Below are positions 7,561-32,558 of a DNA stretch of 64,000 nt, piece by piece. The translations under genes were made by a program, and so were the position numbers. The notes below the pieces were generated by a model that was given only the letters and a program-made list of their open reading frames with translations, did no database searches and had not been told where the DNA came from. The number at the start of each line of letters is the position of its first letter. Within the stretch, counting starts at the first letter, position 1. The DNA comes from an uncultured Rickettsiales bacterium (GTDB taxonomy: Bacteria; Pseudomonadota; Alphaproteobacteria; Rickettsiales; JALZUV01): contig CAZZJS010000008.1 in NCBI GenBank assembly GCA_964654855.1, positions 4,220 to 68,219 on the forward strand. Reading direction: 5' to 3'.

Positions 7561-7607
7561 TGGTGGAGGATACAGGAGTCGAACCTGCGACCTCTTGAAT
7601 GCAAATC
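7561..7607 (-). repeat. att direct repeat (copy 3) = 3'-terminal 47 nt of tRNA-Ala
   Basis: TGGTGGAGGATACAGGAGTCGAACCTGCGACCTCTTGAATGCAAATC is identical to 32483-32529. Confidence 0.92.
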
Positions 7608-7724
7608 TTAATTTATATAAATACCCATAAATCACTGTAGGTATATTAGAAGATATTTATCAATGGCTTAAACCCATATATTTTGTTCTTGTGGTATCTA
7701 TAGAGGTGTGCGAAGTTCTATGTG

Positions 7725-7746
7725 TTGGTGCCTATTTGGTGCCTAT
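7725..7746 (+). promoter_or_regulatory. perfect 11-bp tandem direct repeat (TTGGTGCCTAT x2); candidate integrase arm-type or regulatory site
   Basis: TTGGTGCCTATTTGGTGCCTAT lies just upstream of the int B start codon (7759). The 19-nt core GGTGCCTATTTGGTGCCTA recurs at 17438-17456, at the other end of island B. Confidence 0.45.
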
Positions 7747-7758
7747 AATGGAGATAAA

Positions 7759-8925
7759 ATGTCAAATACAGTGAATATCACTAAGCGCTTTGTGGATAGC
7801 AAAGGGGCTGAACCGAAGGATCAAACCTATTGGGATAGTGCTATCCGAGGCTTTGGATTGAAGGTAACTCCGAAGGGGCGAAAAGTCTATTTGTTCAAAT
7901 ATCGCAATATGGCTAAAACTCAGCGCAAAGCTACGTTGGGAGTGCATGGCAATATCACATGTGAGCAAGCGCGTAAAATCGCGCAACAATGGTCGCATGA
8001 GGTATCACAGGGTAATGACCCCGCTGGCAGAAAACAGATGATAGGCGAGTCCCCTACGATTGCTGAATTATGTGATCGATACCTAAATCAATATGCCAAA
8101 CACTACAAAAAAGAGAGCAGTGTTGAATTTGATAGAATTCAGATTGAGAAGCGCATTAAGCCATCAATAGGCAATTTGAAGATAGCAACGATAAACCAAA
8201 ATGATATTACGCGCTTACACCATCAAATGCGTGAAACACCTACCCAAGCGAATAGGGTTTTGGCTGTTCTCTCCAAAATGTTCAATTTGGCCGAGAAATG
8301 GGGTTTGCGCCCCGATATGACGAATCCGGTACGAAACATTGACAAATACCCCGAAAAAGCGCGTGAGCGATTCTTATCGCAAAAAGAGGCGCAACGATTG
8401 CTTGCAGTGCTGGATGAAGAGGAGGAAATGGGGATTGAATCGATTTATGTTATTTCTCTCATCCGTTTGTTAATTTTTACGGGTGCGCGATTGCGAGAGA
8501 TTATGCATGCAAAATGGGAGTGGCTAGATATGAAAAAAGGCTTTCTGCATTTGCCGGATAGTAAAACGGGCAAAAAAACGATTCAATTATCGGCACCCGC
8601 TATATCAATATTAAAGAAACTCCCAAAGCAGGAGAAAAATCCTTACATCATTTGCGGAAAGGTTGAGGGGATGCCTCTAAACAATGCGCGCAAGCCGTGG
8701 CTGCGTATTCGTCAAAAAGCAGAACTCGAAGATGTGCGCTTGCATGATTTACGGCATAGTTTTGCTGCCTTGGCTATTGAGGCAGGAATACCGCTTTACC
8801 ATGTTGGGAAATTGTTGGGGCATAAACAATCTCGCACAACAGAGCGCTATGCACACTTAGCGGATGACCCAATCAAAGCAGCGGCAGAATTAGTAGGAAA
8901 GCAGTTGGATAGCCTCAATGGATAA
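7759..8925 (+). CDS. int: P4-type tyrosine integrase (DUF4102 arm-binding N-domain)
   Basis: Track ORF starts at GTG 7708. ATG 7759 has a GGAG SD. N-terminus ITKRFVDS...YWDSAIRGFGLKVTPKGRKVYLFKYR. Catalytic ARLREI...HDLRHSFA...LLGH...RYAHL. Confidence 0.9.
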   Translation: MSNTVNITKRFVDSKGAEPKDQTYWDSAIRGFGLKVTPKGRKVYLFKYRNMAKTQRKATLGVHGNITCEQARKIAQQWSHEVSQGNDPAGRKQMIGESPTIAELCDRYLNQYAKHYKKESSVEFDRIQIEKRIKPSIGNLKIATINQNDITRLHHQMRETPTQANRVLAVLSKMFNLAEKWGLRPDMTNPVRNIDKYPEKARERFLSQKEAQRLLAVLDEEEEMGIESIYVISLIRLLIFTGARLREIMHAKWEWLDMKKGFLHLPDSKTGKKTIQLSAPAISILKKLPKQEKNPYIICGKVEGMPLNNARKPWLRIRQKAELEDVRLHDLRHSFAALAIEAGIPLYHVGKLLGHKQSRTTERYAHLADDPIKAAAELVGKQLDSLNG

Positions 8926-9826
8926 ATCTGCTTCTTCAGCACTAATAAAGATCATTATGGCGACGACTCAATCGCTGGTGAAAGATGAAAATTCTCACCA
9001 ATCTTATTTTGACATGAGAAAGCAAATAATTCCCTATTTCTGTAATCTCAATGATGAAAAAAAATTGGAAGCTATTAAACTGCTTGAGGCGGAGTTAGGA
9101 GGAAAAGATATTTTGCGTCTGCTTGTGCCAGATCAATATATCGCCAATCTCCTTGCCGTATTAAATGCTCATTATATTTCAGCCTCTAATGGTGTTTCTC
9201 TTGCAAATCTGATTGAGAATCTTGATTCATACCTGCTACCCCAACAGGGGAGCCTACAATCAAAAGCGCGAAAATTGCTATTAGGGTTTATAGCGACCCA
9301 GTTAAGAGAAAATGATGCAACACTAAATGGTGCATATCTTATTTTAGGGGATATGTTCAATACTAGCGAAAGTGATGTTAAGCGGGGCTATAAAGAGTAT
9401 ATTGAAAGCGACCTCCACCGTAATGATCATGCGTTTCAATACCATTTATTGCTGATTTCATTTTGTATGCTTGAATGTGCTAGAGAAAATTGGCGATTGT
9501 CAGAATTAGAGCTTTCAAGCGAGCCATCTTCCAATAAACGGGAAAAGTTAAAAAAAGCCTACGGTGCCTATGATAAATGGCGAATGAATACGATGATAAG
9601 TAATCGTGATGAAGCGCGTGAAATGCTGCTCTCTGACGAGCCGTTAGTTGCCAAATTTATGCGACCGGAATTTGTAGATTTGCTTAATACGAAGCAAGCA
9701 GATTTCACGAATGAAGAAATTATCGCTATTTTAATGTTGCGTATATTTCAAATTGAAGATGATTCACCTATCAATTTGCGTTCAGCATTTTCATTAGATG
9801 AACCTGTGTCAAAGTCTTTGGCCTAG
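8918..9826 (+). CDS. hypothetical protein (302 aa)
   Basis: ORF overlaps the int B stop by 8 nt (ATGGATAA). Predicted mostly helical. No recognisable motifs. Confidence 0.55.
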   Translation: MDKSASSALIKIIMATTQSLVKDENSHQSYFDMRKQIIPYFCNLNDEKKLEAIKLLEAELGGKDILRLLVPDQYIANLLAVLNAHYISASNGVSLANLIENLDSYLLPQQGSLQSKARKLLLGFIATQLRENDATLNGAYLILGDMFNTSESDVKRGYKEYIESDLHRNDHAFQYHLLLISFCMLECARENWRLSELELSSEPSSNKREKLKKAYGAYDKWRMNTMISNRDEAREMLLSDEPLVAKFMRPEFVDLLNTKQADFTNEEIIAILMLRIFQIEDDSPINLRSAFSLDEPVSKSLA

Positions 9827-9940
9827 GTTCAAAGTTTTTTGCTCACCTAGCCAAAAGGTTTGTTCTCCCAGTATTTTAGCATTGTTGGAAGGCGATAAGC
9901 GTCTCCACAAATGTTGAAATCAATAATTGGGGAAAGAACC

Positions 9941-10156
9941 ATGCAGAAAAAATATTATTCACCGAAAGAATTATCGGAACTGTGGGGCGTGTCGGAAAAT
10001 ACGCTTCGCAAATGGCGCTGGGAGGGGAAAGGGCCAAAATTTGTCAAATTAGGTGCGCGGGTGGCATATCGTGCGGTCGATATTGACACTTATTCGGAGC
10101 AAAACCTTCATTCATCTACCACCTTAGCGATGGAGGAGGATCATGCCTCATTATAA
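9941..10156 (+). CDS. AlpA/excisionase-family HTH DNA-binding protein
   Basis: YYSPKELSELWGVSENTLRKWRWEGKGPKFVKLGARVAYRAVDIDTY fits the HTH_17/AlpA pattern. ATG 9941 is preferred over the track start 9911. Confidence 0.75.
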   Translation: MQKKYYSPKELSELWGVSENTLRKWRWEGKGPKFVKLGARVAYRAVDIDTYSEQNLHSSTTLAMEEDHASL

Positions 10157-10460
10157 GCTAAATTTTGATGCAATAAACGAGAAAGCGCTACAGCACAGTT
10201 TTGCCATATTGCGGCGTTGGTTGCCGGATGGAAAGATTGCATGCGGAGAATATATTGCGCGTAATCCCAAACGAGCAGATCGCAAGGCCGGATCGTTTAA
10301 GATCAACCTCACTAGCGGAAAGTGGGCAGATTTTGCAACGGGAGATAAAGGCTCAGGCTTTATCTCATTGGCATCCTATCTTCATAATCTTGAAACTTAT
10401 GAGGCGGCAAAGCAATTAGCGCAGATGCTTGGGATGGTGGGGGTGAGTCATGACCAATAA
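10143..10460 (+). CDS. primase N-terminal (zinc-ribbon-like) domain protein, separate ORF
   Basis: RRWLPDGKIACGEYIARNPKRADRKAGSFKINLTSGKWADFATGDKGSGFISLASYL resembles the N-terminal region of P4-alpha-like primases. Overlaps alpA by 14 nt and the Toprim ORF by 11 nt. Confidence 0.5.
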   Translation: MPHYKLNFDAINEKALQHSFAILRRWLPDGKIACGEYIARNPKRADRKAGSFKINLTSGKWADFATGDKGSGFISLASYLHNLETYEAAKQLAQMLGMVGVSHDQ

Positions 10461-12936
10461 TGTCTCTTTTGCTCCACTTGATGAATCTGAAAAGGAGAAT
10501 CAAGCGCCTAAATCAAAACGAGATACGCTGTGGGAGCCTATCTTTCCAGTTCAAGAGGGTGTTATTGAGCCTTCAGGGATGAAACACCCTAAGCATAATG
10601 TAGCAGTATCACAAGATTGGCCATATTATGATGAGCAAGGCCGATTGCTCGGTTATAATTTACGGTTTGATTTTGAGGTGGATGGCGAGTCTGAGAAAGA
10701 TTATAGGCCTTATACCTATTGGAAAAACACTCAAACGGGCGAATGCCAATGGAAATTTAAGGGGTTCCCAAAGCCAAGGCCGCTTTATGGTTTGGATTGG
10801 TTGGCATCGAATCCGCACGCTACCGTTATTATTTGCGAAGGTGAAAAGTCAGCCCTCGCACTACACAAGGTTGTTGGTGGCGATTATGTTGCGGTTACGA
10901 CCGGCGGCGAGAGTTCAGTCAAATATGCTAATCTCATGCCCCTCAAAGATCGAAAAATTATCATCTGGCCGGATAAGGATAAAGCAGGTTCGAATTACGC
11001 TAAGCAACTATATCAACGGCTGATGGGTGAATCCATTGCCGGTGACGTTTCAATTATTGGGCCACCAACCGATAAGCCGGAAAAATGGGATGCAGCAGAT
11101 GCGATAGAATATGGCTGGGGAAAAACAGAATGCCTAGCCCTTATAGGGAATGCACAAACAGTTAAAATTCCCTATAGGGAAAAGATTCCCTATAGGGTTT
11201 GCGAGAAGGGTTTGTATTTCTCACCACCAGCCAAAGAGGATGGTACCCCCAAGGATGAAATATGGTTATCTGACCCTATAGAGGTGTTAGCACAAACTCG
11301 TGATGAAAAAGGGCATGAATGGGGGCTATTACTTCGCTGGAAAGATGCCGATCATCGTACTCATGAGGAGGCCTTTTCCAAAAAGCATTTTGCGGCATCG
11401 GATGGTAAAGCACTGATTGAGCATTTGCTCGATCGAGGGTTAAATATTTCACCTAATCGCAATAATCGGCAAAACTTCCTCGCATATCTTCAAACAGTCA
11501 AACCACCTCGTATGGCAACTAGCGTGACCAGAGTTGGTTGGAAGGATAGCTTTTATATGCTGCATGATGGGTGCATCCCTAAGAATGAAGAAATTTATCT
11601 GCAAAACGCTGCGATTGAGCATGGCCGTTTCAAGCCAAACGGTACGTTGCCGCAGTGGAGAGAAGAGATAGGTCGCTATATCGCCGGTAATTCTCGGCTT
11701 GTGCTATTTGCATGTTCGGCATTTGCTGCGCCTTTACTCAAAATAGCAGATGAAAAAGAAGGTGGTGGTTTTCATCTTTACGGCGGCACCTCGGTCGGTA
11801 AAAGTACCGCCTTAGAAGTCGCGGCTAGTATTTGGGGTGATCATGATTACATTCACCAATGGCGTAATACGGATAATGCCTTTGAGGCTGTTGCACTTGC
11901 TCATAATGACGGTTTGTTATGCTTAGATGAATTACACCAAGTCGATCCAAAAGCCCTAGATAAAATCATCTACATGATCGCCAATGGCCGCCCTAAAGGT
12001 CGGATGCGTAAAGATACTACGCTCAAACAGGCAGAAAACTGGCTAGTATTGCCCTTATCGGTCGGTGAGGTGACGGTCGAACAACGGCTTGCTGAAGGTC
12101 AGATCAAAGCGCATGGTGGTATGGAAAGCCGTTTTGCGACCATTGCTGCCGATGCCGGAAAGGGTTATGGTCTCTATGATAATATCCATCATTTTACCTC
12201 AGGCGAACAATTAAGCGATCATCTCAAACAAGCTAGTAAGCGCTATTATGGTGCTCCCATTCGTACCTTTATCGAAAAACTAGTACCCATATCGCATGAG
12301 GATATCAAAAGAGAGCTATTGCAGCACCGTGACGCATGGGTGGAGCGTTATGTCAGCTTAGATATCAAAGGGGGTCAAATAGGCCGTGTAGCGAAGCGCT
12401 TTGGCTTGCTCTCTTATGCCGGAAAACTCGCCAATCAGTTTGAGATATTAGGTTGCGGTCAAGATGCGATAGATGAGGGGCTGAGTGTTTGTTTCAGTGC
12501 ATGGCTTTCTGAGCGTGGTACGCTTGGTGATGTTGATATTTATCATGCGATTGAGCGCATCAAAGCATGGTTTAGTAAATATGCTCATAACTCGTTCATT
12601 ACTCTTGGCAGTGAAGAGTTAGATCAAGTTCCTCGTACCATGCGAGAACAGGCAGGTTTTAGCCGTTACATCGACAATCAAAAGCAATTCATTGTGACGG
12701 ATAGTTTCTTCAAAGGTGAGTTTGCAAAAGGCGTGAATGAGAAATCTCTCGCACGTGAACTCGTCAATCAAGGCTATTTATTGCAAGATGGCCAGCAAAA
12801 TACAAAAGTACCGGTGCGTATTCCAGCCCCTCATAGCAATAATAAACCACAGCGCCGGTACATCTTCACACAAAATATAATCGAAAATGAATGCTGTAAC
12901 AGCGTAACAACTGTAACAGAGGAGGAGGTGATATGA
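10450..12936 (+). CDS. Toprim primase / DUF927-type helicase-like replication protein (P4 alpha-like)
   Basis: 828 aa. Toprim VIICEGEKSALAL...IIIWPDKDKAG. P-loop GGTSVGKST with Walker B-like LLCLDELH. Confidence 0.85.
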   Translation: MTNNVSFAPLDESEKENQAPKSKRDTLWEPIFPVQEGVIEPSGMKHPKHNVAVSQDWPYYDEQGRLLGYNLRFDFEVDGESEKDYRPYTYWKNTQTGECQWKFKGFPKPRPLYGLDWLASNPHATVIICEGEKSALALHKVVGGDYVAVTTGGESSVKYANLMPLKDRKIIIWPDKDKAGSNYAKQLYQRLMGESIAGDVSIIGPPTDKPEKWDAADAIEYGWGKTECLALIGNAQTVKIPYREKIPYRVCEKGLYFSPPAKEDGTPKDEIWLSDPIEVLAQTRDEKGHEWGLLLRWKDADHRTHEEAFSKKHFAASDGKALIEHLLDRGLNISPNRNNRQNFLAYLQTVKPPRMATSVTRVGWKDSFYMLHDGCIPKNEEIYLQNAAIEHGRFKPNGTLPQWREEIGRYIAGNSRLVLFACSAFAAPLLKIADEKEGGGFHLYGGTSVGKSTALEVAASIWGDHDYIHQWRNTDNAFEAVALAHNDGLLCLDELHQVDPKALDKIIYMIANGRPKGRMRKDTTLKQAENWLVLPLSVGEVTVEQRLAEGQIKAHGGMESRFATIAADAGKGYGLYDNIHHFTSGEQLSDHLKQASKRYYGAPIRTFIEKLVPISHEDIKRELLQHRDAWVERYVSLDIKGGQIGRVAKRFGLLSYAGKLANQFEILGCGQDAIDEGLSVCFSAWLSERGTLGDVDIYHAIERIKAWFSKYAHNSFITLGSEELDQVPRTMREQAGFSRYIDNQKQFIVTDSFFKGEFAKGVNEKSLARELVNQGYLLQDGQQNTKVPVRIPAPHSNNKPQRRYIFTQNIIENECCNSVTTVTEEEVI

Positions 12937-13112
12937 ATATCAATCAGTTAGAGTGAATCACTTCGTTACAGAATCGTGGTTGGAATCTGTAACCATTGTA
13001 ACTGTTACACTCGTTACGAAATGGAATTAGCAGCCTGTAACGAGTGAAAATAAAATAAGCTATTGATATACAATAACTCAAAAAGCTTGTTACAGCCGTT
13101 ACATGGTTACAA
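12894..13112. repeat. iteron cluster, putative replication origin of island B
   Basis: There are 12 copies of GTAAC/GTTAC, mostly as (C)TGTAACR / YGTTACA: 12896, 12904, 12913, 12965, 12989, 12998, 13004, 13013, 13037, 13089, 13098, 13106. All lie within about 215 bp, where chance expectation is below 1. The cluster starts in the 3' end of the primase gene and is followed by an AT-rich stretch. Confidence 0.6.
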
Positions 13113-13196
13113 AGATTAAAACTTAAATGAATAACGAAATAAAAGTTATTTAACGGTAATGGATGAAATGGCGGAAAAGTGAGTTTTTATTTCGTC

Positions 13197-13240
13197 ATTT
13201 CCCTTAGGGAAAAACAGTTTTTGCACTCCCTAAGGGAAAT
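13197..13240. repeat. perfect 14-bp inverted repeat (ATTTCCCTTAGGGA ... TCCCTAAGGGAAAT), 16-nt spacer
   Basis: Arms at 13197-13210 and 13227-13240 are exact reverse complements. No T-run follows, so a protein-binding or ori-associated role is likelier than a terminator. Confidence 0.5.
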
Positions 13241-13336
13241 CCTGCGATAGTGAGGTTTCGCTATATATAGAAATCAAAACAGTAAAAAGAACAGTTTAAA
13301 ACTGTTTTTAAACAGAAAAATAAAAGGAATTGAACA

Positions 13337-13570
13337 ATGATACGATTAGTTGCAATGGCGATGGGAGTGGGTTTTGCTGCTATCGCCGCTAAAATACTCG
13401 AAACGGAAAAAGAAGCTCCTATTTTGGATGAACCTGCCAATATGGAAAACGATGGTGAAATGAAAGACGAAAACGCCTATCAGCGCGGAGATCGTTTTTT
13501 CTGCCCCGATACAGGAATAGAGCTACAAGTTCGCGCTGTCGGGGGCCGCCCACGTAAGAATGAAGTTTGA
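13337..13570 (+). CDS. small hypothetical protein with N-terminal TM helix (77 aa)
   Basis: AAGGA SD lies 8 nt upstream. MIRLVAMAMGVGFAAIAAKIL is hydrophobic and the middle is acidic. Confidence 0.4.
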   Translation: MIRLVAMAMGVGFAAIAAKILETEKEAPILDEPANMENDGEMKDENAYQRGDRFFCPDTGIELQVRAVGGRPRKNEV

Positions 13571-13639
13571 CGCAATAGATTAATCAGCGTTACACTTTTA
13601 CCGAAAGGTTTTCTTCTGGCCAAGAGCGGACATTCAAGC

Positions 13640-14434
13640 TTAATTATTTTGTAATTTATTGCATCCTTCGGGATAGGTTTTTCCTACCTCCTTAAATATT
13701 ACATCCTCTGCTGTATGAACTTTAAGTACTTTCGCTGTTTCTAGGCAATCTACAATGGCCAAGTCAGTGCCTTCAATACTCACTGTGACTCCCATACTGG
13801 CAGCCCATGCTTTGGAAGCTGTACTAGCCACAGAATGGGCATTCCAACCATCTCGAAGCTGAGTCTGTACTTCTACGATGCGCGGCCTTCCAATGCTTTC
13901 CAACTTATTTGCAATGATATTATCTGATAACCAAAAATATGCAGATTCTCCACCCCAGCTTCTAAGCAAAGGTTTAACACCACAATGGTTAGCTGATTTT
14001 GGGGTTGTAACCGTCCAAAATCGATTTGATCTGCTATCTGCTTGTTTTTGGAATGGACTTTTTTGCAAGATAATATCAACTTCATTTTTTGTTAAAAGTT
14101 GTTTGCTCTTGAGGGTCTTTAGGCGTTGGTGCAAGCTATCAAGCGTGGATGCAGTTATGCGATCTTTCATAGACAATACCTCATCATCCAAGAGTCTTGT
14201 ATAATGCCACACACGTATTGATCTCTCTAAAAACATGGGGGTTATAATATGTTCTAATGCTTCGTTGTAAGCTGCACTGTATTGATTTGGTTTTAAGCTT
14301 TCATATGGATCACTATTTAAGTGCTCATCCATTAAGCGCTTTTCTTCACTAAAATAATTAGTAATAAGGGCGGAACAACTAACCAATAAGCTCCGAAGCT
14401 CATTATCAAATGTTTCTGGGTTCCAGCAATCCAT
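13640..14434 (-). CDS. hypothetical protein (264 aa from ATG 14434; 266 aa if TTG 14440), downstream partner of the two-gene cargo operon
   Basis: ATG 14434-14432 shares its A with the TGA stop (14436-14434) of the upstream ORF, giving TGATG. No recognisable domain. Confidence 0.7.
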   Translation of the reverse strand: MDCWNPETFDNELRSLLVSCSALITNYFSEEKRLMDEHLNSDPYESLKPNQYSAAYNEALEHIITPMFLERSIRVWHYTRLLDDEVLSMKDRITASTLDSLHQRLKTLKSKQLLTKNEVDIILQKSPFQKQADSRSNRFWTVTTPKSANHCGVKPLLRSWGGESAYFWLSDNIIANKLESIGRPRIVEVQTQLRDGWNAHSVASTASKAWAASMGVTVSIEGTDLAIVDCLETAKVLKVHTAEDVIFKEVGKTYPEGCNKLQNN

Positions 14435-23721: not shown

Positions 23722-23774
23722 TGATAGCTTACAGTGCACTCCATTGTTTGATTTTGGTTAGACGATATGAAAAA

Positions 23775-23803: not shown

Positions 23804-23830
23804 TTCAAGTAAATTCCTTAATTAATAAAA

Positions 23831-24061
23831 CTATTCATAGCACCATTGAGAAGGTCTCGGGTGAGTATACAAATTTTTAGTGATAAACAATTCTATGTCT
23901 TTAAGACGATAGCGTATACAACCTCTTGAAAAATATACAAACGGAAGCCCTCCAGCCGGCCCATACCCTGTACAACGCCCGTAAGATAGTGAAGAAGGGC
24001 TGATATGAAGAATTTCAGAAACCTCTTTAGTGGTTAGTAATGTTTTTTTATTTTGCTGCAT
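23831..24061 (-). CDS. AlpA/excisionase-family HTH protein
   Basis: ATG 24061 with an AGGAG SD. LLTTKEVSEILHISPSSLSYGR...PFVYFSRGCIRYRLKDIELFI fits the HTH_17 pattern. Confidence 0.7.
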   Translation of the reverse strand: MQQNKKTLLTTKEVSEILHISPSSLSYGRCTGYGPAGGLPFVYFSRGCIRYRLKDIELFITKNLYTHPRPSQWCYE

Positions 24062-25116
24062 GGCTTTAAATCTCCTATTGTTCACCGTTAACAAAATGAA
24101 GATCTGGAACAAAGTTGTACCCTTATCCAGATCTTCTGGATTAAGGTTACAACTGACGCATGTATATGCTGAAGTTACTAAACGGTGCCCTAATGCAAGC
24201 TTTGCTTGCGGCTCATAACTCGCCCTAATTTAAACACAAAATATCATAGTCAAAAAATACGTCAACTATTTTTGGACTGACTTAGTGTCTTAGTTAACGG
24301 CTTATCGCAATGGAGCCGCATAGGAGTTTGCAATTCTCATTTTCTGAAATATTTATTATCTGAGTAGGATGAGATACAGCAGAACAAAAACAATCAAATT
24401 TTCCTTGCAACATACTAATTTGGCATATTTGCTTTTGCAGCAGGTATTGAAAGTACTGTGGATGCAAAGGGTTGATCGTTTGGAGCAATCTTTGCCTGTT
24501 TTTATCAAGACGCCGTCTTCGTAAAGTGATGGGAGTTTTGCGTAGATTGGGCGTTTTACACCATCAATGGATAGTTTTGAGCATCTTTGGCGTAGCGGGT
24601 ATCATACGATTAATCGAAGCAAAAAAGAAAATCCAAATTAAGAAATTAGTATCTAACGAACAAACTGCGCAGAAATTTCAGGGCAGGATTTCTTGGTTGG
24701 TTTCAGGGCAAAAAGCACAAAAAAAGCAGCTTTTCGGCAAGAACCAAGTGTTACTAACATACCCCTCAATCCCCATAGTCTTCTCTATTCCTATGAATAG
24801 CTAACTATCAATTCCTTTCAATCTAACTCCCTTTTTATCATTACACTGGAATACAGAATCACTTTTAGAAAAACCTGTGAATGTTGATACAGCAAATAGC
24901 ACTCAATCACTGCAATAGCAGCTTAATGTGTAACATGCTAATTTAACAATGAAGGAACGATGCAAATGAATGATATGCATGGAAGGAGGTTTTAATCCTG
25001 CGCAAATACGTCCAGTGGACGCCAAACCAATCAAGGCTAGCTTTTGCACACTGAATCGACATAATATCGTTTATAGAAAGAAAAGCAGATGCTAGAGATA
25101 AAACTGAGATTGTACC

Positions 25117-26400
25117 ATGACAGAATCCACCATTGCTTGCCCACAATGTTCTCACAAGATTGAACTTACTTCATCGTTGAAGGATTCTTTAGCGGCACCT
25201 TTATTAGCGGATGCGCAGAAACAGTTTGAAGAACGCCTAGCACTTAAAGATACAGACATCGAACAACGTGAAGCGAGTTTGCGAGAACAACAACAAGCCA
25301 TTAAAGCGGCACAGCAGGCTATCGATAAGCAGGTGGAAGAGAAGTTAGATGCAGAACGCGCTAATGTCGCCAAGCAAGAGGCTGACAAAGCCAAACGTGC
25401 CGCACAATTAGACATACAGGCAGAGAAAGATAAAGCCGTTGAGTTACAGGAGTTACTTAGCCAGCGTGACCAGAAGCTAGAAGAAGCCCGCAAGCAACAA
25501 GCTGATTTTTTAAAGCAACAGCGCGCGTTGGAAGAGAAAGAGCGTGAAGTCGAACTAACCATCCAAAAGCAGGTAACAGCGACACTTGGTCAAGAACGCA
25601 CGAAGATGCAGCAGGAAGTAACGGCAGCTAGTGAATTAAAGCTACGTGAGAAAGAAGAACAAATGGAGTCGATGAAGCGCACCATTGAAGAGTTAAAGAA
25701 AAAGGGTGAGCGTGGATCACAGCAACTTCAAGGTGAAGTCGTGGAGATGCAGTTAGAAGAAGAGTTACAAGCTCGCTTTAGTCATGATGTGATTACTCCT
25801 GTGCCTAAAGGTGAGCATGGCGGTGACGTGCTGCAAACCGTTTGCCAAGTTACGGGCATAGAGTGTGGAAAAATCTTATGGGAAACTAAGCGCACCAAAA
25901 ACTGGACAGAAGGCTGGTTATCTAAACTGCGTGATGATCAACGTGCAGCTAAAGCAGAAATTGCTTTGATGATGTCCTACGCTTTACCTGCTGATGTCCA
26001 AACATTCGACCAACGTGATGGTGTTTGGATATGTGCACCACAATATGCAGTGCCGCTTGTAACAGCGCTACGTCATACGTTATTGGAAGTTGCTAATAGC
26101 AAACAGTCGCAAGTGGGTCAGAAGTCGAAGATGGAATTGGTATATGCTTACCTAACGGGGCCGCAGTTCAGACACCGTGTAGAAGCGATTATTGAGAAGT
26201 TCGATGACATGCAAGCCGATCTAGTCAAAGAGAAGCGTTTTACTCAAAAGCAATGGGCTAAGCGCGAAACGCAGATGCAAGGAGTACTAGACTCCACTAT
26301 CGGTATGTATGGTGACTTACAAGGTATTGCAGGCAAAGCGTTGCAAGAAATTGATGGGCTGGATGTTCCGTTGCTAGAAGCTGATGAAGAAGCGGCGTAG
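25117..26400 (+). CDS. DUF2130-like protein (Zn-ribbon, long coiled coil, conserved C-terminal domain)
   Basis: CPQCSHKIE, then about 190 aa of E/K/Q-rich coiled coil, then GEHGGDVLQTV...GKILWETKRTKNWTEGWLSKLRDDQR, which is typical of DUF2130. Confidence 0.65.
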   Translation: MTESTIACPQCSHKIELTSSLKDSLAAPLLADAQKQFEERLALKDTDIEQREASLREQQQAIKAAQQAIDKQVEEKLDAERANVAKQEADKAKRAAQLDIQAEKDKAVELQELLSQRDQKLEEARKQQADFLKQQRALEEKEREVELTIQKQVTATLGQERTKMQQEVTAASELKLREKEEQMESMKRTIEELKKKGERGSQQLQGEVVEMQLEEELQARFSHDVITPVPKGEHGGDVLQTVCQVTGIECGKILWETKRTKNWTEGWLSKLRDDQRAAKAEIALMMSYALPADVQTFDQRDGVWICAPQYAVPLVTALRHTLLEVANSKQSQVGQKSKMELVYAYLTGPQFRHRVEAIIEKFDDMQADLVKEKRFTQKQWAKRETQMQGVLDSTIGMYGDLQGIAGKALQEIDGLDVPLLEADEEAA

Positions 26401-26505
26401 TCTGTAGTAAAGGAAATTACTGTCATCGGTGCGGCACAAAAAGGGCGACCCCGAAAGACCGCCCTTAGGTTTGCAATTTACACTGCTAGTTAAAGTTGGT
26501 GGGCG

Positions 26506-27609
26506 TTACGCCCAGTCAATTTCCCCTGAATTATAGCGCTTCATACCTTTGAAGATAAAACGATTTGAATACCCTAGCGCATCCCAAAAAGTGTAAACTT
26601 CTTTTACCTCTAAATCCTTCATAGGATTCCCTTTATTATCAAGATTAACGAAATTTGTTGTAGGATTAATATCAAACCCTTTTTGTTCAAGGTAGCGCTT
26701 AATAGAATAGGTTGCCACACGATAAATTCCCATCATAGCACGTACGTATTTGGGACTACCTGGTTTGCATTGCAAGGCACGAATCTTTTTCCCTTCAAGG
26801 TTAAGATTCTGCAATTTAACATGCACCCTATAAGGTGGATAAGAAGATGCCGAGTGATCATTCTTACAGAATATTGTTTTGATGCTGTCACGAATTTTGT
26901 TTATGTCATCCTTTGGGTCGCGGATTAAAAACCCGTGCCAATGTAAATGACCGAAGCCATACTCGTGTTCACCGTGGGGGTAGTTGTATGAAATGTCGAG
27001 TCCTAAACCAATGACTACATTCTCTAGAGCTGGATGACGACGAATGCGGTCACCTGTTTTGCGACATTGATCTGTAGAAAAACTCCGTTTTATGTTTGGT
27101 AAAACCTTTTTAAGTTTTTCTGCTGTTTCTGGTAGACGATCAATGGGTATTGCATATTTCGGAGGAATAATAGTCATATGGTAAATTGCATCTGAACGGC
27201 AAGTCTCCACTAAACGAGTCATTTGATATGCATGACTCATACGTAAATATGCAGAGCAAGCTGGACAAATGAATTGATCGCATGGCGTATGGTCCGACAA
27301 TTTATTACGATTTGGGTACATCTGATTTTTCAGCATAAAGTTTGCTAATTCGCACTCTTTCAGCTTGTTTAGCGCCTTATAAAGACGCTTATCAATTTTA
27401 AGTAATTTTTCTGTTTTCTTTATATTACGAATGATCGACTTTGCAGATTCAAAGCCTTTCTTTTTGTCTTTCTCACATACAATCTTCTTATTCTCCTGAC
27501 GAGTAAATGCATTATATTCACGCATAAGAGCAAACGCTTCTTTCCCATGGTTTTTTAGAATACTCTCGGTCAAATTTTGCTTTTTTGGTTTGGGTTTCTT
27601 GACAGTCAT
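26506..27609 (-). CDS. putative rolling-circle replication initiator (HUH endonuclease-like)
   Basis: 367 aa. HUH-like GHLHWHGFLI, downstream double-Tyr segment GIYRVATYSIKRY, Cys cluster CDQFICPACSAY. Start and stop abut the upstream HTH gene. Confidence 0.5.
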   Translation of the reverse strand: MTVKKPKPKKQNLTESILKNHGKEAFALMREYNAFTRQENKKIVCEKDKKKGFESAKSIIRNIKKTEKLLKIDKRLYKALNKLKECELANFMLKNQMYPNRNKLSDHTPCDQFICPACSAYLRMSHAYQMTRLVETCRSDAIYHMTIIPPKYAIPIDRLPETAEKLKKVLPNIKRSFSTDQCRKTGDRIRRHPALENVVIGLGLDISYNYPHGEHEYGFGHLHWHGFLIRDPKDDINKIRDSIKTIFCKNDHSASSYPPYRVHVKLQNLNLEGKKIRALQCKPGSPKYVRAMMGIYRVATYSIKRYLEQKGFDINPTTNFVNLDNKGNPMKDLEVKEVYTFWDALGYSNRFIFKGMKRYNSGEIDWA

Positions 27610-28097
27610 TACGCACCCCCATTCAGTTGGTTGAGGTTATCACGAAGATACGCTTCAACATCGCTGCGGTGATAGCGGACAAGTGAGCCAATTTTATGAT
27701 ACGGAAGATTTATGCCTAAACCGCTATAGCGCGACTTCTGTAAAGGCTTCACTGAAATACGAAGATAGTGAGCGACTTCCTTTTCAGTCATTAGATCATG
27801 CATCTCAGACAGGTTCTTGGTTTGTGCCGTGGATAAGGTTGTTGCTTTAACCGCAAAGGACAAAATCTTGTCGATCAGCTTCTGTACACTGAAGCGTTCG
27901 GGTTTACCTTCTTCATTGATAAGCGTCATAGGTTCAACAGGTTCTTCGACGCGGACAACACCAAGTCCATCAAACTCCTTGTGATAGGTGATACGGGTAG
28001 TCAATGAGGACTTTGCCCCATAATTAATGTGAATCATGATATGATTCCCTTCTGCCCACTCAGGTTTCCGGAATCCCATGTAAAAGCGAGTGAGCAT
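27609..28097 (-). CDS. hypothetical protein with C-terminal HTH_17 (excisionase-type) domain
   Basis: LMTEKEVAHYLRISVKPLQKSRYSGLGINLPYHKIGSLVRYHRSDVEAYL. ATG start. Its stop overlaps the Rep-like start. Confidence 0.6.
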   Translation of the reverse strand: MLTRFYMGFRKPEWAEGNHIMIHINYGAKSSLTTRITYHKEFDGLGVVRVEEPVEPMTLINEEGKPERFSVQKLIDKILSFAVKATTLSTAQTKNLSEMHDLMTEKEVAHYLRISVKPLQKSRYSGLGINLPYHKIGSLVRYHRSDVEAYLRDNLNQLNGGA

Positions 28098-28332
28098 GCC
28101 CTTTAATGGGTATACTCACGGAACTTAAAGCATTTGCTAGAAGCGGCTTTGCCTAAAAGCCTGTCGTGTACAATCTAAATTATTATCAAACATGTTGCTT
28201 GAAAGAATTTAAGTTAGGTAGATAACTTTGGCTTAACGCTACCCTCATTAGTACATGCACGATCATACACTAATATCTGTTAAGGAGTCAAGATTTTGGC
28301 ATGCTGTTTTTTTACTAAATTTAGCAAACGCT

Positions 28333-28800
28333 TTATGAAGACTCAGGTTTTCCAAATATTTTTTCTGCATCAGTAATTTGCTGATACCAATAGTCTTGCT
28401 GTTCTGCTGGCTGTGAAGCTACAACTTGAAATATTCTATAAGCGTTAGCACTCACATCTTTGCTTTCAGAATCAAACGAGAATAAATCACGCATCTCGAC
28501 ACGTAATAGTCTTGAAGCTTTATAAGCGACTTCAATAGGGCAGCGATTCTCACCGCGCTCTATGCGTGAAATATGTTCTTTAGAAACGCCTACTGAATCA
28601 GCTAATGTTTGCTGAGTAATTCCCGCAATACCGCGAAGCGTTTTCAGGCGTTTACCAAATAGCTTTAATAATTTTTTCTTTTCCACCGCAATATAATCGC
28701 ATATTGCCACTGAACTTCCACGCCATTTACTGTTGATTTTAATGCAGGTTTTGCTAAATAATCGTGATAATTGCCTACTTGTGGCGATACCTAGAAACAA
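28333..28800 (-). CDS. XRE-family HTH transcriptional regulator (start uncertain)
   Basis: FGKRLKTLRGIAGITQQTLADSVGVSKEHISRIERGENRCPIE. The N-terminal part has no ATG. Candidate starts are TTG 28800, GTG 28710 and GTG 28686; the shorter forms leave about 100 bp of divergent promoter region. Confidence 0.75.
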   Translation of the reverse strand: MFLGIATSRQLSRLFSKTCIKINSKWRGSSVAICDYIAVEKKKLLKLFGKRLKTLRGIAGITQQTLADSVGVSKEHISRIERGENRCPIEVAYKASRLLRVEMRDLFSFDSESKDVSANAYRIFQVVASQPAEQQDYWYQQITDAEKIFGKPESS

Positions 28801-28811
28801 AATGGTGAAAT

Positions 28812-29450
28812 ATGATGCCTAAGATCGAAGAATTATCGCAGCTAAATGAGCTACGTAAACAGGGGGCTTTAAGCGAAGCTGAGTTTGAAGCGCAGAAGAA
28901 AAAGATTCTGGAAGGTGATGCTGAAACAGCAGAACGAGCTGCATCAGAAGAAACATCCAAGCAAGGTAAGTCCAAGTACGTAAACTGGGAAGATGTACCG
29001 CTAAAGCATAAGTTCTGGCTCCATATGTTGTTGGGATTGTTTGCAGGGCCGCTTGGGGTGATCCCATTTGCGCTATTCCCATCCTATATGAAGAACAAAA
29101 AAGGCGGCGTTGATCGGGCCGGTAAAGCGATGAAAGCTCTCTTTGCTTGCGGCTTTGTTATTTTGTGGGTGATTGCTGTTTTTAATCCAAGTTCTGATTT
29201 TACCTTGCCGTTATGCGATAGTGCCGCAGTGGAACAGACGCTTGGTCAGTTAGTCGCAAACGGCCCACAAAGTAAACTGGTGAATATCAAGCTACTGCAA
29301 GTCACGAATGCCGCAGAGATTTCTTATGATGCACAGCTTCTTGAGCGCGCTTGTACTGCTGATCTACTGTTAAATACAGGCAATGAGTCCGTGCGCTTTA
29401 AAGTCACTAAAGGCAAAGCGTTTGGCACATTCCTAGTGCAGACATTCTAA
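28812..29450 (+). CDS. membrane protein with N-terminal SHOCT domain (paralog 1)
   Basis: SHOCT-like IEELSQLNELRKQGALSEAEFEAQKKKILEG. Two TM segments flank FPSYMK. The C-terminal domain has conserved Cys (CDSAAV...SYD...C). Confidence 0.7.
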   Translation: MMPKIEELSQLNELRKQGALSEAEFEAQKKKILEGDAETAERAASEETSKQGKSKYVNWEDVPLKHKFWLHMLLGLFAGPLGVIPFALFPSYMKNKKGGVDRAGKAMKALFACGFVILWVIAVFNPSSDFTLPLCDSAAVEQTLGQLVANGPQSKLVNIKLLQVTNAAEISYDAQLLERACTADLLLNTGNESVRFKVTKGKAFGTFLVQTF

Positions 29451-29453
29451 GTT

Positions 29454-30086
29454 ATGCCCAGCACCGATGAACTGATTAAGCTGAGTCAACTGCATCAGGA
29501 TGGCATCCTAACGCAGGAAGAGTTCGAAGCTGAAAAGCAGAAGATTCTAAATGTTACGCCTACTACGCAAAAGCATGTTCCAGCTTCGGAAGTCGAAGTA
29601 ACGCTGCTGAAAGGCTGGGATGATATACCACTGCGGTGGAAGCTGTGGTTCCAGCTTATAGTGAGTATTTTCCTGCCGCTAATAGGATTGTTGTTGATGG
29701 TGTTCTTACCCTCCTATTCCAAGACAGAAGATGAAAAAGCACAAAAGGTTAGGAATACATCAAAGAGCATTTATATGGTGGCCATTCTAGCTGCATGGGG
29801 GCTGTTTGTACTAGTGGAAAGCGTAACCTTCCCTGAATGTGACAGCAGCAGGGTAATAGAGCGTTTAGACACGCTTATCGAGAAAGAGCCTTTATTGAAA
29901 TTCGCTAATATTAAGCCGCTATGGCATGTGGTAGTGTCTGAGACTTCCTATGATGAAGGTGCTGGCAAGCGTGTTTGTAAAACAGAAATGCTGCTGGAGA
30001 ATGGCAAGGACTTCACAATACGCTATGAGCTAATAGAAGAAGTCACTGAAGCGGGCGCCTTTTCGATAAACTTGCTCTATAAGTGA
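29454..30086 (+). CDS. membrane protein with N-terminal SHOCT domain (paralog 2)
   Basis: Starts 3 nt after paralog 1. TDELIKLSQLHQDGILTQEEFEAEKQKILN. Shares W(E/D)D(V/I)PL, (F/L)PSY.K, CDS..V, NIK.L, SYD and L.NG with paralog 1. Confidence 0.7.
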   Translation: MPSTDELIKLSQLHQDGILTQEEFEAEKQKILNVTPTTQKHVPASEVEVTLLKGWDDIPLRWKLWFQLIVSIFLPLIGLLLMVFLPSYSKTEDEKAQKVRNTSKSIYMVAILAAWGLFVLVESVTFPECDSSRVIERLDTLIEKEPLLKFANIKPLWHVVVSETSYDEGAGKRVCKTEMLLENGKDFTIRYELIEEVTEAGAFSINLLYK

Positions 30087-30101
30087 TGCTGTCATAGATG
30101 A

Positions 30102-31121
30102 CTAATCTGTAATTCCACCAGTTTTATGAATTGTAGGCTGGTGTTTCTTTTGAATCTCAGAGGCAATTTCTTGCGCAAGTTTGTCAGACACTTCATTAAT
30201 TGCTAACTCAGCTGCTTTGCTACCATCGTTGGAGGTGAGACAAAATGCGATTTGCTGTTTAGGCAATAACACAACTTTAGCACGGTTTAATGTATTGCTA
30301 CCGTCATGTGTAAGCACCGCGCCGTTATTTAAGGAATGCATTCCAGAGCTTGTATAGGCACTTCCTTGCCCTGTTAAGACTTCTTGCGAGTGATTTAACG
30401 TATAGCTGTTTTCCATACGGTGCTGCAAAAACTTCATCCAATCTCCCATAGAGGCGTGTATTCTTCCCGCTGCATCATAAAGTGACGGGTTGTCCTCATT
30501 AATGGCTTGTCCGTTTTCTTTACTGTGTCCCCAAGGTTGGTTTGGAATATCGGACGCAGAGTCTGCCATTGAACCAAAACCAGCAGTTTGCATGTTGAGT
30601 GGTTCGAATATCCTTTCTGTGACCAGCGTCTGGTAGCCTTTGCCTGTTTGTTTTTCTGCTATAGCGCCTAACAAAATGTACCCGACATTACTATACTCAA
30701 ATTGATCTTTTGGAGTGGGAGGCGCATCACTCAGAATGTTTGATATAATGTCCTTTTTATCCAGACTCATATCTCCTTCGTAATTCACCGCCAATCCCGC
30801 TGAATGTGTGAGTAGTTGAGAAACCTTGATGTTCGCAATATCAGGATGCAATGGTTGGTCTGTAAAAATATCTTCTAAACGATCAGATAACTTTAGACGA
30901 TTTTCACCAACCAGTTGCTGTATAAGAAGCGCACTGACAGCTTTACCGCAAGAGCCAAAGTGAAATTTATCATCCGTGGTAACAGGGGTTTCATTTCCAC
31001 GCTTACGAACCCCCGAAGCAAAACTACTAATTTGTCCATCAAATAAGACAGACACGCCTAATGCTGGCAAATCATGCTCTTTTCTTTTTTGCTCAATTAT
31101 CTCTTGCGTGCCTTCAAACAT
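30102..31121 (-). CDS. serine hydrolase, beta-lactamase/PBP-like family
   Basis: SxxK FGSCGKAV, YxN YSNVGYILLG, plus LLTHSAGL. 339 aa with no signal peptide evident. Confidence 0.8.
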   Translation of the reverse strand: MFEGTQEIIEQKRKEHDLPALGVSVLFDGQISSFASGVRKRGNETPVTTDDKFHFGSCGKAVSALLIQQLVGENRLKLSDRLEDIFTDQPLHPDIANIKVSQLLTHSAGLAVNYEGDMSLDKKDIISNILSDAPPTPKDQFEYSNVGYILLGAIAEKQTGKGYQTLVTERIFEPLNMQTAGFGSMADSASDIPNQPWGHSKENGQAINEDNPSLYDAAGRIHASMGDWMKFLQHRMENSYTLNHSQEVLTGQGSAYTSSGMHSLNNGAVLTHDGSNTLNRAKVVLLPKQQIAFCLTSNDGSKAAELAINEVSDKLAQEIASEIQKKHQPTIHKTGGITD

Positions 31122-31184
31122 ACAACTTTATTGTAAATGAAAAACCTTACAGTTTGATTAAGCTCATCTTAGTTAGCACTAGTG

Positions 31185-32192
31185 CTACTGCCTTACGCTG
31201 TAACAGCGTATAAGCGCTTTATCTTCTCCACTATTAATAGTCATGCCTTCTGTAGCAAAGTAATGGTGCGCTTTGCGGTATTGCGCTTGGGTTAAATGTT
31301 CTGCTGCTACGTTAAATGCAGCAAGGGGTGACTCCATGGCATAGGGAAGCTTTAGAAAATGCGATGCAGCAATGGCGAGATTTCCTTTTAAAGCAGCAGA
31401 AGCGGTGGCAATGCCGTGCCTTTGCCAGAAGCAATCTTTGTTAGGGGCTGAAAAACGGTGTATGGCAGAGATAGCAATATCGACTTGTTCTTGTTTGATC
31501 ATGTTATGCCAGCGGGTAATGAGCTGTTGGCGTAACGGGTTTAATAGCTTGTTACTTCCTTGGTGCAATTGTCCCTCATGATAGATATGCCGCATGTATT
31601 TCTTACGTGGTGAGAACGCTTCTATTGGTTCATTCAGGCCAAACATATCATAACAAGCACATAGCAAGGCACGATGGCCTGAGGATAATGTCACGACACG
31701 GTGCGGACTATCATAATCTTCGCTATAGCCGGCAATAGAGGTGCCTTTTCCAGTACCGTTACTGTCCCGATCTGTAGGAAACACCTTTCTGCCAATACCT
31801 ATAATGCCGCTACGGTTCCAAGCGATACAAAGCTCATCTCCGCTTTCCCAATCGCTGGCCTTAGCGCTATCAACGCCGCAAATAACCGTAATATCAAGAT
31901 AGCGCGTATGAAGCTGTTTTGATGCTTTCTGCAATGCTTGTGCAAACTCGGTTACTTCTAGCGCTTGCTTGCGTCCTGCATAATCCAAACGACCACAGGC
32001 AAAGGGAGCAAAGAAATGGCCACCGGGCAGCACTACTGCATGCAGCTCTTGCCAGTTAGATTTTAGGATGGTTTGGACGGATTGTTCCAACAGTGCAATA
32101 CGCTGGGCATTAATGTTAGTGTCTATGGCTTTATCGCCAGAAGCACAGATCGTTACGATATTAAGTGGCTTCTTGGTATTTGTTTCTGGCAT
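31185..32192 (-). CDS. hypothetical protein, weak carbon-nitrogen-hydrolase-like pattern
   Basis: 335 aa with alternating beta-like strands. GRKVFPT and LLCACYDMFG resemble the Lys and Cys motifs of nitrilase-superfamily enzymes, but the catalytic Glu motif is not evident (VVLPGG). Confidence 0.5.
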   Translation of the reverse strand: MPETNTKKPLNIVTICASGDKAIDTNINAQRIALLEQSVQTILKSNWQELHAVVLPGGHFFAPFACGRLDYAGRKQALEVTEFAQALQKASKQLHTRYLDITVICGVDSAKASDWESGDELCIAWNRSGIIGIGRKVFPTDRDSNGTGKGTSIAGYSEDYDSPHRVVTLSSGHRALLCACYDMFGLNEPIEAFSPRKKYMRHIYHEGQLHQGSNKLLNPLRQQLITRWHNMIKQEQVDIAISAIHRFSAPNKDCFWQRHGIATASAALKGNLAIAASHFLKLPYAMESPLAAFNVAAEHLTQAQYRKAHHYFATEGMTINSGEDKALIRCYSVRQ

Positions 32193-32482
32193 AATCGGTT
32201 CCTTTTGTTGTTATGCCCCGAAGGCTACAAAAGGCACAAAGCCCGTCAATTCGTTGATGAGCAGGCATGAGTTGGCTATAGTAATGGCAGAAAGTTTCGA
32301 TAGTGGCGTTGCTTCATAACAAGAGTAAACAGGTAAAAGCGCTAAAAACGAGTCTGGAACTACCCCACAGCACCCTGCGTTTCTACGTCTGTTCCTTATT
32401 ATAGCCTTATTAATTTGGAAGCGAGCATTCTTCGCTGATCGCGTGACGACCAAGTAAGCTATTGAACAATATTATGAAATAA

Positions 32483-32558
32483 TGGTGGAGGATACAGGAG
32501 TCGAACCTGCGACCTCTTGAATGCAAATCAAGCGCTCTACCAACTGAGCTAATCCCCC
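32483..32558 (-). tRNA. tRNA-Ala (anticodon UGC), CCA encoded
   Basis: Reverse complement GGGGGATTAGCTCAGTTGGTAGAGCGCTTGATTTGCATTCAAGAGGTCGCAGGTTCGACTCCTGTATCCTCCACCA. Cloverleaf folds, G3:U70 identity pair present, anticodon loop TTTGCAT. Confidence 0.95.

Follow-up and report, generated by a model that had tools for sequence, protein, structure and literature searches.

The stretch of DNA considered here, hereafter referred to as the window, comprises 64,000 nucleotides (nt) of a contig from an uncultured Rickettsiales bacterium and contains a single tRNA gene, tRNA-Ala(UGC), which was placed by ARAGORN at positions 32483-32558 of the minus strand and matched the Rfam model RF00005 with a score of 72.7 bits. 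The DNA to the left of this gene is divided by partial copies of the same tRNA into three segments, designated elements C, A, and B in left-to-right order, each of which encodes a tyrosine recombinase (IntC, IntA, and IntB, respectively). The same DNA is present in the Joint Genome Institute (JGI) metagenome 3300000976 as contig BBAY71_10000099, 71,278 base pairs (bp) in length, which extends 4,213 nt further left than the window. Positions to the left of the window edge on the source contig are given as negative numbers, and motif counts stated per 68 kb refer to the window together with this left extension. An earlier reading of the sequence, here called the original prediction, had proposed that two islands accreted in tandem at the 3' half of the tRNA-Ala gene.

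The 46-mer TGGTGGAGGATACAGGAGTCGAACCTGCGACCTCTTGAATGCAAAT (given in plus-strand orientation) occurs exactly three times, always on the plus strand (positions 7561-7606, 17504-17549, and 32483-32528), and was found in none of 100 shuffled sequences, which bears out the original prediction that the 3' half of the tRNA is present in three perfect copies of like orientation. With the shared flanking bases included, identity to the tRNA gene extends to 48 nt for copy 1 (7560-7607, corresponding to 32482-32529) and to 47 nt for copy 2. The repeated block opens at tRNA nt 31, where the 5' strand of the anticodon stem ends, closes with the encoded CCA, and covers the whole anticodon loop, the variable loop, the T arm, and the 3' strand of the acceptor stem. 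Copy 1 (7561-7607, minus strand; defined by exact match and by reading of the sequence) represents a displaced tRNA 3' part at the junction of element C on its left with element A on its right, while copy 2 (17504-17549, minus strand; an exact 46-nt match) occupies the equivalent position between elements A and B. Copy 3 is the 3' 46 nt of the intact gene itself, whose assignment is further supported by an identical tRNA in a related genome. A fourth, degenerate copy, AATAATGGTGG-GGATACAGGAG, lies outside the window at approximately -606 to -588 and matches the final 18 nt of the tRNA at 17 positions, one nt having been deleted; its counterpart is the last 18 nt of copy 1 (7561-7578), which, by analogy with the short repeats of relatives described below (L095 and L100), double as the tRNA-proximal core of element C. 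A further near-match to this 18-mer, at 60215-60232, was dismissed as fortuitous, being located inside a long open reading frame (ORF) with no tRNA at that site.

The closest genome to that of the window, within a collection of species representatives, is a Rickettsiales-labeled metagenome-assembled genome (MAG), JALZUV010000207 (locus L001), in which the PmbA protein is 77% identical and the tRNA-Ala gene is identical; the remaining matches of the PmbA search are alphaproteobacterial, at approximately 50 to 57% identity, and the host of the array is an uncultured marine alphaproteobacterium. Locus L001 is syntenic with window positions 32465-35649, spanning the tRNA, a 206-aa (amino acid) gene, pmbA, and an ABC transporter, and the similarity ends exactly at the 3' end of the tRNA. 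Beyond this point L001 carries part of a type I restriction subunit gene and then housekeeping genes, which encode an M16 peptidase, glucose-6-phosphate isomerase, and an exchanger of the Kef type; the comparison with a related genome that had been called for earlier shows a break in synteny at the tRNA. The G+C content is 0.38 to 0.44 over positions 1 to 32 kb, as against 0.46 to 0.50 to the right of the tRNA. The tRNA-Ala(UGC) gene itself is a stand-alone gene, divergent from the 206-aa gene and pmbA rather than situated in an rRNA spacer (window 32483-32640), an arrangement which is retained in the related MAG (L001 6936-7080).

Element A (7608-17503, plus strand; approximately 9.9 kb) was delineated using Pfam, PHROGs, and NCBIfam, a matching Logan contig, and the related island L096. 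Its tRNA-distal end is occupied by intA (7759-8925, plus strand), which reads inward and encodes a 388-aa tyrosine integrase (phrog_1 integrase, 1e-69) consisting of an Arm-DNA-bind_3 (DUF4102) N-terminal domain (Pfam, 1.4e-17) and a Phage_integrase domain with a complete catalytic set (TGAR, K, HDLRH, GH, and RY); in the stored annotation the gene begins further upstream, and its product has 401 aa. Two copies of the motif GGTGCCTA, with an 11-nt period, lie on the integrase side (7727-7745, plus strand) and another two on the far side, 48 to 66 nt left of copy 2 (17438-17456, plus strand), such that these two end pairs account for four of the five occurrences of the motif in 68 kb; they are considered candidate arm-type binding sites. 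Downstream of intA are a 302-aa ORF, an AlpA-like HTH_17 (helix-turn-helix) gene (9911-10156, plus strand; Pfam 1e-10, phrog_66 excisionase/regulator) whose product is a candidate directionality factor or regulator, a 105-aa ORF, and a gene for an 828-aa replication protein (10450-12936, plus strand) in which a Toprim primase is fused to a DUF927 (Cch-like) helicase, as indicated by Pfam (DUF927, 1e-75, plus Toprim), by phrog_1139 (DNA primase), and by a partial match to the NCBIfam model for the Cch1 helicase of the staphylococcal cassette chromosome (SCC). The element ends with three minus-strand cargo ORFs of 266, 569, and 165 aa (13640-16949), for which no Pfam, PADLOC, or NCBIfam match was obtained and of which the 165-aa ORF has phrog_6823 (unknown function) as its sole match. 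Because the same slot holds a 1,328-aa SIR2 gene in L096, these ORFs are regarded as a candidate undescribed defense system.

Element B (17550-32482, plus strand; approximately 14.9 kb) was defined in a similar fashion by Pfam, PADLOC, and a Logan contig, and likewise bears its integrase gene, intB (17742-18923, plus strand), at the tRNA-distal end in an inward-reading orientation. IntB (393 aa) combines an Arm-DNA-bind_3 (DUF4102) N-terminal domain (3.4e-12) with a Phage_integrase domain (both by Pfam), and its catalytic set (TGLR, K, HDLRR, NH, and GY) is complete. The original prediction, whose coordinates all proved to be accurate, had placed an inward-reading integrase gene within 150 to 200 nt of each internal repeat copy and had described both products as DUF4102 proteins of similar length, in agreement with the observed distances (the intA start lies 152 nt past copy 1 and the intB start 193 nt past copy 2), domains, and sizes. 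The candidate arm motif of element B is CCTTATTA, which occurs twice with an 11-nt period on the integrase side (17682-17700, plus strand) and twice on the far side, 71 to 89 nt left of the tRNA 3' end (32394-32412, plus strand), these pairs comprising four of its seven occurrences in 68 kb.

The first part of element B continues from intB with a 173-aa ORF and a LlaJI-like restriction-modification module (19563-23721, plus strand; Pfam, and PADLOC REase_II), consisting of genes for a C5 methyltransferase with an N-terminal HTH, an AAA_5 GTPase/ATPase subunit, and a LlaJI-type endonuclease, after which a DUF2130 gene and a 367-aa ORF are found. The second part encodes a 162-aa HTH_17 protein (27609-28097, minus strand; Pfam, phrog_66), a candidate excisionase or regulator, together with an HTH_3 protein, two neighboring paralogs with SHOCT domains (28812-30086), a serine beta-lactamase-fold protein (30102-31121) which scores far below class C cutoffs, and a 335-aa ORF.

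Element C (approximately 8.1 kb) occupies positions 1-7560 of the window (minus strand) and continues leftward to approximately -587 of the source contig; it encodes IntC, a polymerase-like protein, a small membrane protein, an AriA/OLD-like ATPase, and a 214-aa ORF product. The intC gene (5749-7476, minus strand) specifies a 575-aa tyrosine recombinase with a DUF6538 N-terminal domain and a Phage_integrase domain (Pfam), whose catalytic residues (GTR, HSLRH, GGW, and NY) are complete. In contrast to intA and intB, it is located at the tRNA-proximal end of its element and shares the transcriptional orientation of the tRNA, its start lying 85 nt left of the CCA end of copy 1; this matches the classical layout, in which the tRNA is followed by the integrase gene. 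The interval that separates the intC start from copy 1 contains two copies of the element's end motif, TCGTAACA, with a period of 13 nt (7476-7496, plus strand; copies at 7476 and 7489), and the third of the three occurrences of this motif in 68 kb, at -528, falls approximately 60 nt inside the distal repeat. The two repeats of the element (-606 to -588 and 7561-7578) agree at 17 of 18 nt. The original prediction had correctly noted a 575-aa tyrosine recombinase adjoining copy 1, but had taken that copy to be the outermost, a position now held by the decayed 18-nt copy, and had described the recombinase as unrelated; it is the integrase of a third element, and the array accordingly comprises three elements rather than two. 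No directionality factor was found for element C, a metagenome scan with the IntC alignment returned pattern matches with no confirmed relative among them, and a search of a library of papers for DUF6538 gave no match.

The gene adjacent to intC (3990-5756, minus strand), which overlaps it by 8 nt, as does its homolog in L100, encodes a 588-aa protein proposed to be the putative replicase of element C. This protein has no Pfam, NCBIfam, or PDB sequence match, even by profile, and is assigned to phrog_4756 (unknown function); 209 homologs were retrieved at E values of at most 1e-5, distant copies occur in 155 phage records, chiefly of large marine Vibrio, Aeromonas, and Pseudoalteromonas phages in which they are annotated as hypothetical, and matches in plasmids are few and uninformative. 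An AlphaFold (AF2) model computed from a 50-sequence alignment reached a mean predicted local distance difference test (pLDDT) score of 81, and family A DNA polymerases (apicoplast Pol, KlenTaq, Bst, Klenow, and T7) made up almost all of its top 50 PDB matches by Foldseek, one related single-subunit mitochondrial RNA polymerase being also present; the best E value was 6e-5 with a probability of 1.0, yet template modeling (TM) scores were low (0.2 to 0.27). The family consensus contains DYSGLHI..LL, R...K, and IHDS, with E287, D289, R331, K335, H424, D425, and S426 invariant, which would correspond to motifs A, B, and C of the Pol I and T7 enzymes. The 588-aa family is, therefore, presumed at the level of the predicted fold to be an uncharacterized group of family A DNA polymerase-like proteins.

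The other large gene of element C (508-2244, minus strand) encodes a 578-aa ATPase with AAA_15/AAA_21 domains (Pfam) resembling the defense ATPases AriA, OLD, and GajA; the best PADLOC match is AriA of PARIS (9e-18), followed by OLD/GajA-type models. It is followed by a domain-less 214-aa ORF (approximately -238 to 406) which is cut by the left edge of the window, and the two may represent a two-gene defense cargo. An interpretation of the three large minus-strand ORFs between 508 and 7476 as a recombinase trio of a Tn554-like element was considered and rejected, as a single recombinase (5749-7476) is present, the 588-aa neighbor has no similarity to IntC and a polymerase-like fold, and the product of ORF 508-2244 is an ATPase. 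Approximately 330 nt of non-coding DNA at the left end of element C (-606 to -250; L083 12495-12851) is conserved in L095 (1598-1950), the integrases of the two elements being 52% identical, and includes the T-arm-like sequence AAAATCAGGAGTCGAACC and the G-rich block CAAAGGGGGCATGCGGGGGACAAGGGGT; this conserved end may serve as an origin or as an arm region, or may specify a small RNA. The T-arm-like 13-mer, at approximately -407, had been entertained as a decayed attachment-site remnant or a deleted B-type junction, a possibility which was discarded, since its conservation in the L095 element at tRNA-Thr identifies it as a cis feature shared by C-type elements rather than a relic of tRNA-Ala.

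Relatives of the three integrases were informative as to the boundaries and autonomy of each element. IntA and IntB, the pairwise alignment of which had also been called for earlier, are 24% identical to each other, belong to families of 7,981 and 3,981 proteins, respectively (at E values of at most 1e-20), and have best phage integrase matches of 35 to 40% identity. The A-type relative in L096 (GCA_010031735.1; integrase 58% identical) constitutes a single 10.4-kb island delimited by an exact 45-nt tRNA-Ala(GGC) repeat which starts from the anticodon loop, with the intact tRNA at the far end, the integrase distal, GGTACCTA in two copies at both ends, the same gene order as element A, and the SIR2 gene as cargo. 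A second A-type integrase, in L095 (64%), adjoins the 46-nt 3' part of tRNA-Thr(UGU), where it stands back to back with a C-type element. B-type relatives are associated with the 3' parts of a tRNA-Ala(UGC) of different sequence (L087, 76%), of tRNA-Arg(ACG) (L090, 63%), and of tRNA-fMet (L091, 60%), all of which begin in the anticodon loop, and in each case a CCTTATTA-like pair is present upstream of the integrase gene. Both the tRNA-distal location of the integrase gene and the boundary in the anticodon loop are thus family traits of the A and B types, and the tRNA target shifts quickly within each family. In view of their low mutual identity, their different arm motifs, and the occurrence of their close relatives at other tRNAs, IntA and IntB reached tRNA-Ala(UGC) independently, by convergence; the proposal that the two islands are independent insertions of the same specificity consequently holds as regards independence, while specificity is shared for the 46-nt core alone.

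The C-type recombinase of L095 and its partner gene are situated between an exact 19-nt repeat of the tRNA-Thr(UGU) 3' end and the 46-nt tRNA-Thr fragment, the 19-nt repeats being 7.1 kb apart, and the left-end non-coding DNA aligns with that of the window from the core onward. In L100 the gene pair directly follows an intact tRNA-Ile(GAU), and an exact 18-nt repeat is found 8.7 kb downstream. Both relatives share a TCGTA[AG]CA motif in the same 2+1 layout as element C. Tentatively, the C-type elements, inclusive of those in L095 and L100, might constitute an undescribed family of 7- to 9-kb self-replicating integrative elements, the module of which would be a large DUF6538 recombinase translationally coupled to a highly divergent family A-type DNA polymerase, and which could enter displaced tRNA fragments. 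As only the T arm would be needed for integration, insertion into such fragments would be possible, which would partly explain why C-type elements are stacked behind A-type elements.

Taken together, these data indicate that the region is very probably a tandem array of three unrelated integrative elements, each inserted by site-specific tyrosine recombination at the one tRNA-Ala(UGC) gene. The synteny break relative to L001, the intact integrases, the element-specific end motifs, and the single-copy relatives in L096 and L100 are all in keeping with tandem accretion at the tRNA 3' half, as had been envisaged from the sequence. From what is established for tyrosine integrases, IntA and IntB are presumed to perform strand exchange in or at the anticodon loop, the partners being the chromosomal gene and an element attachment site (attP) that contains the 3' part of the tRNA. 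Insertion would rebuild a functional tRNA from the copy carried by the element and push the old 3' part, along with everything downstream of it, outward; since each insertion would rebuild the tRNA and displace its former 3' part, exact 46-nt copies would come to separate the elements. The tRNA-distal position of intA and intB after insertion would follow from the orientation of these genes, which face away from attP on the strand opposite to the tRNA sense. IntC is proposed to act in the same manner at the T loop, its site being the last 18 nt of the tRNA, from the T loop/T stem to the CCA end.

Sequential insertion into the intact gene would have proceeded in the order C, A, and B, in which case the 3' half of the working tRNA would now derive from the attP of element B. 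Other insertion orders yield the same map, and the presence of a complete T arm in the displaced 46-nt fragment means that element C could have been inserted either before or after element A; the crossover position, the insertion order, and present-day activity are inferred, whereas the repeats, genes, motifs, synteny break, and single-copy relatives are observed. On each side of the core, every integrase is predicted to recognize arm motifs of its own, namely GGTGCCTA for element A, CCTTATTA for element B, and TCGTAACA for element C. The tandem end motifs, which elements A and B each carry at both ends, are as expected of a circular attP whose core was flanked by arm sites and which was split by insertion. 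Given such binding, each integrase should excise its own element only, and single excision is plausible; joint excision, which the original prediction had also allowed for, appears unlikely, as the outer ends of any adjacent pair would carry arm motifs for different integrases.

Several observations weigh against this interpretation of a three-element array. The k=31 Logan assembly of SRR2835677 splits at every repeat, giving contigs of 11,742 bp (element C plus flank), 9,955 bp (the element A unit, SRR2835677_25707), and 14,991 bp (the element B unit, SRR2835677_13488), with SRR2835677_4239 beginning inside repeat copy 1. Furthermore, 73 nt between the intC start and copy 1 (window 7486-7558), which include the second TCGTAACA and are present in the window and in SRR2835677_4239, are missing from the stored JGI contig, a difference which may reflect either population heterogeneity or a difference in assembly. 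The 46-mer had no further exact match in viral or metagenome contig collections (0 matches), and 46-mer scans revealed no empty site, no circle junction, and no other occupancy in the same species. The chromosomal flank to the left of the array could not be matched to L001, and the position of the outer boundary is accordingly taken from the decayed repeat and from homology with L095. The 1-nt deletion in that repeat may have left element C unable to excise. The metagenomic source, the fragmentation of the Logan assembly inside the repeats, and the 73-nt indel, which points to a locus that is heterogeneous or hard to assemble, are what one might expect if strains each bearing element A or element B at tRNA-Ala had been threaded in series by the assembler through the 46-nt repeat. 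Such a chimera is nevertheless very unlikely: the element order, which was read from the assemblies, is identical in the two long ones (the JGI contig and the window version), which are 100% identical over the rest of their overlap; a 46-nt repeat is shorter than an ordinary Illumina read, so that its junctions should be read directly; and the same back-to-back layouts recur in the unrelated contigs L095 and L091.

That elements C and A, or all three, move as one composite unit in which the internal tRNA copies are relics is likewise very unlikely, even though a C-type and an A-type element are again found back to back in L095, since that pair flanks a fragment of tRNA-Thr and not of tRNA-Ala and is hard to fit to one fixed unit, the A type stands alone in L096 and the C type in L100, each with its own direct repeats, and, owing to the differing arm motifs, the outer ends of such a composite would match no single integrase. 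A further reading concerns the present state of the array and not its origin, holding that the elements arose as described and are now immobile, domesticated defense or cargo islands. This is considered unlikely, if by no means negligible: the imperfect distal repeat of element C and the failure to find relaxase, conjugation, packaging, or capsid genes, or a directionality factor for element C, would accord with it, whereas the perfect repeats of elements A and B, the intact catalytic residues of all three integrases, the arm motifs at both ends, and the HTH_17 excisionase-type genes in elements A and B speak for elements that retain the means to move. Among the genes expected of an integrative and conjugative or integrative and mobilizable element, those for relaxases, coupling proteins, type IV secretion components, and other mobilization families were absent by Pfam from the ORFs between 1 and 32.5 kb, a search which did not extend to oriT sequences.

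The accretion of integrative elements at a single tRNA is in itself a known type of array; what is unusual in the present case is that three unrelated integrases and two site classes meet at one tRNA, and that element C carries an uncharacterized module which pairs a recombinase with a polymerase-like protein. Genomic islands and prophages with P4-type integrases of the anticodon-loop class are exemplified by P22 at thrW and ICEAfe1 at tRNA-Ala. Elements A and B resemble P4-type tRNA islands in the domain architecture of the integrase (on which, as opposed to comparison with P4 Int itself, the P4-type label of IntA and IntB is based), in the rebuilt tRNA, and in the arm-type repeats around the core. 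They differ in the placement of the integrase gene, which is tRNA-distal, adjacent to the displaced fragment, and transcribed away from it, whereas in classical islands, such as CP4-57 at ssrA and the P4-like island at leuX, int follows the intact tRNA. No conjugation, packaging, capsid, or virion genes were found in elements A and B by Pfam and PHROGs, which represents a further difference. Both the anticodon-loop and the T-loop classes of tRNA site have been documented (10.1101/2020.11.02.365908), and element C conforms to the T-loop/3'-end class by virtue of its approximately 18-nt repeats of the tRNA 3' end and its integrase gene next to the tRNA, as do its relatives in L095 (19 nt) and L100 (18 nt).

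Tandem arrays separated by partial tRNAs have been documented for the tycheposons of Prochlorococcus (10.1101/2020.12.28.424599), and accretion of integrative and conjugative elements (ICE), integrative and mobilizable elements (IME), and cis-mobilizable elements (CIME) is described for streptococci. The present locus resembles these arrays in having several elements in series at a single tRNA with nothing but partial tRNA copies between them, in the inward-reading integrases, in the small replication modules with cargo, and in the outward displacement of older elements by newer arrivals, the likeness to tycheposons being one of array layout. It differs from both in harboring three unrelated integrases which act on two site classes (46 nt and 18 nt) of one tRNA. 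In streptococcal arrays the att sites are usually related and served by one integrase, which permits joint mobilization, whereas the arm motifs of the present elements are unlike one another.

Element A, in which int, an AlpA-type HTH gene, and a Toprim-DUF927 primase-helicase gene precede a variable cargo slot, shares only the int-alpA-primase backbone with Staphylococcus aureus pathogenicity islands (SaPI), phage-inducible chromosomal islands (PICI), and P4-like satellites, and resembles SCC elements in its Cch-like (DUF927) helicase. A search of its ORFs of at least 80 aa with Pfam and PHROGs detected no terS, no genes for capsid-size or packaging redirection, and no psu/delta/sid-type genes, for which reason element A is not classed as a satellite of the P4-like, PICI, cfPICI, or PLE kind. 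Casposons are defined by a self-encoded DNA polymerase, and element C likewise combines integration at a tRNA, short direct repeats, a recombinase, and a protein of predicted polymerase-like fold. Pipolins (PMC11551731) are likewise integrative elements defined by a DNA polymerase of their own. Element C is distinguished from pipolins and casposons by its polymerase-like protein, which is predicted to adopt a family A (Pol I/T7-like) fold and not that of family B, and by a recombinase with a DUF6538 domain.

The locus represents a clean case of one tRNA gene acting as a landing pad for several unrelated elements through two sub-sites, and illustrates that integrases with merely 24% identity can converge on one 46-nt core. 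It supplies attP and attB predictions for three integrases of an uncultured lineage, and its cargo slots, in which restriction- and defense-like genes stand beside genes of unknown function, are a source of candidate new defense genes. Should the 588-aa protein be an active polymerase, the family B enzymes found in pipolins and casposons would be matched by one of family A, and a function would be provided for a phage protein family that is currently without one.

Comparable arrangements were noted at the loci of the relatives. In L091 (8425-11161), an element with a 361-aa integrase and a D5-type primase stands back to back with the B-type integrase around the tRNA-fMet 3' fragment, which parallels the order of intC, copy 1, and intA, and such stacks seem to be common around these integrase families. 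In L087 (485-1785; 54.5-kb contig), the tRNA-Ala(UGC) fragment separates two genes, one for MmeI-type restriction-modification and one of the Abi_2 type, from the IntB relative, whose own element apparently holds little beyond a ParE toxin pair. At the outer side of the array, the JGI and Logan contigs stop within 59 nt of each other (L083 16398-16457), after a gene with RTX (repeats-in-toxin) repeats approximately 4.2 kb left of the window, which suggests a further repeat or a strain-variable junction at that point.

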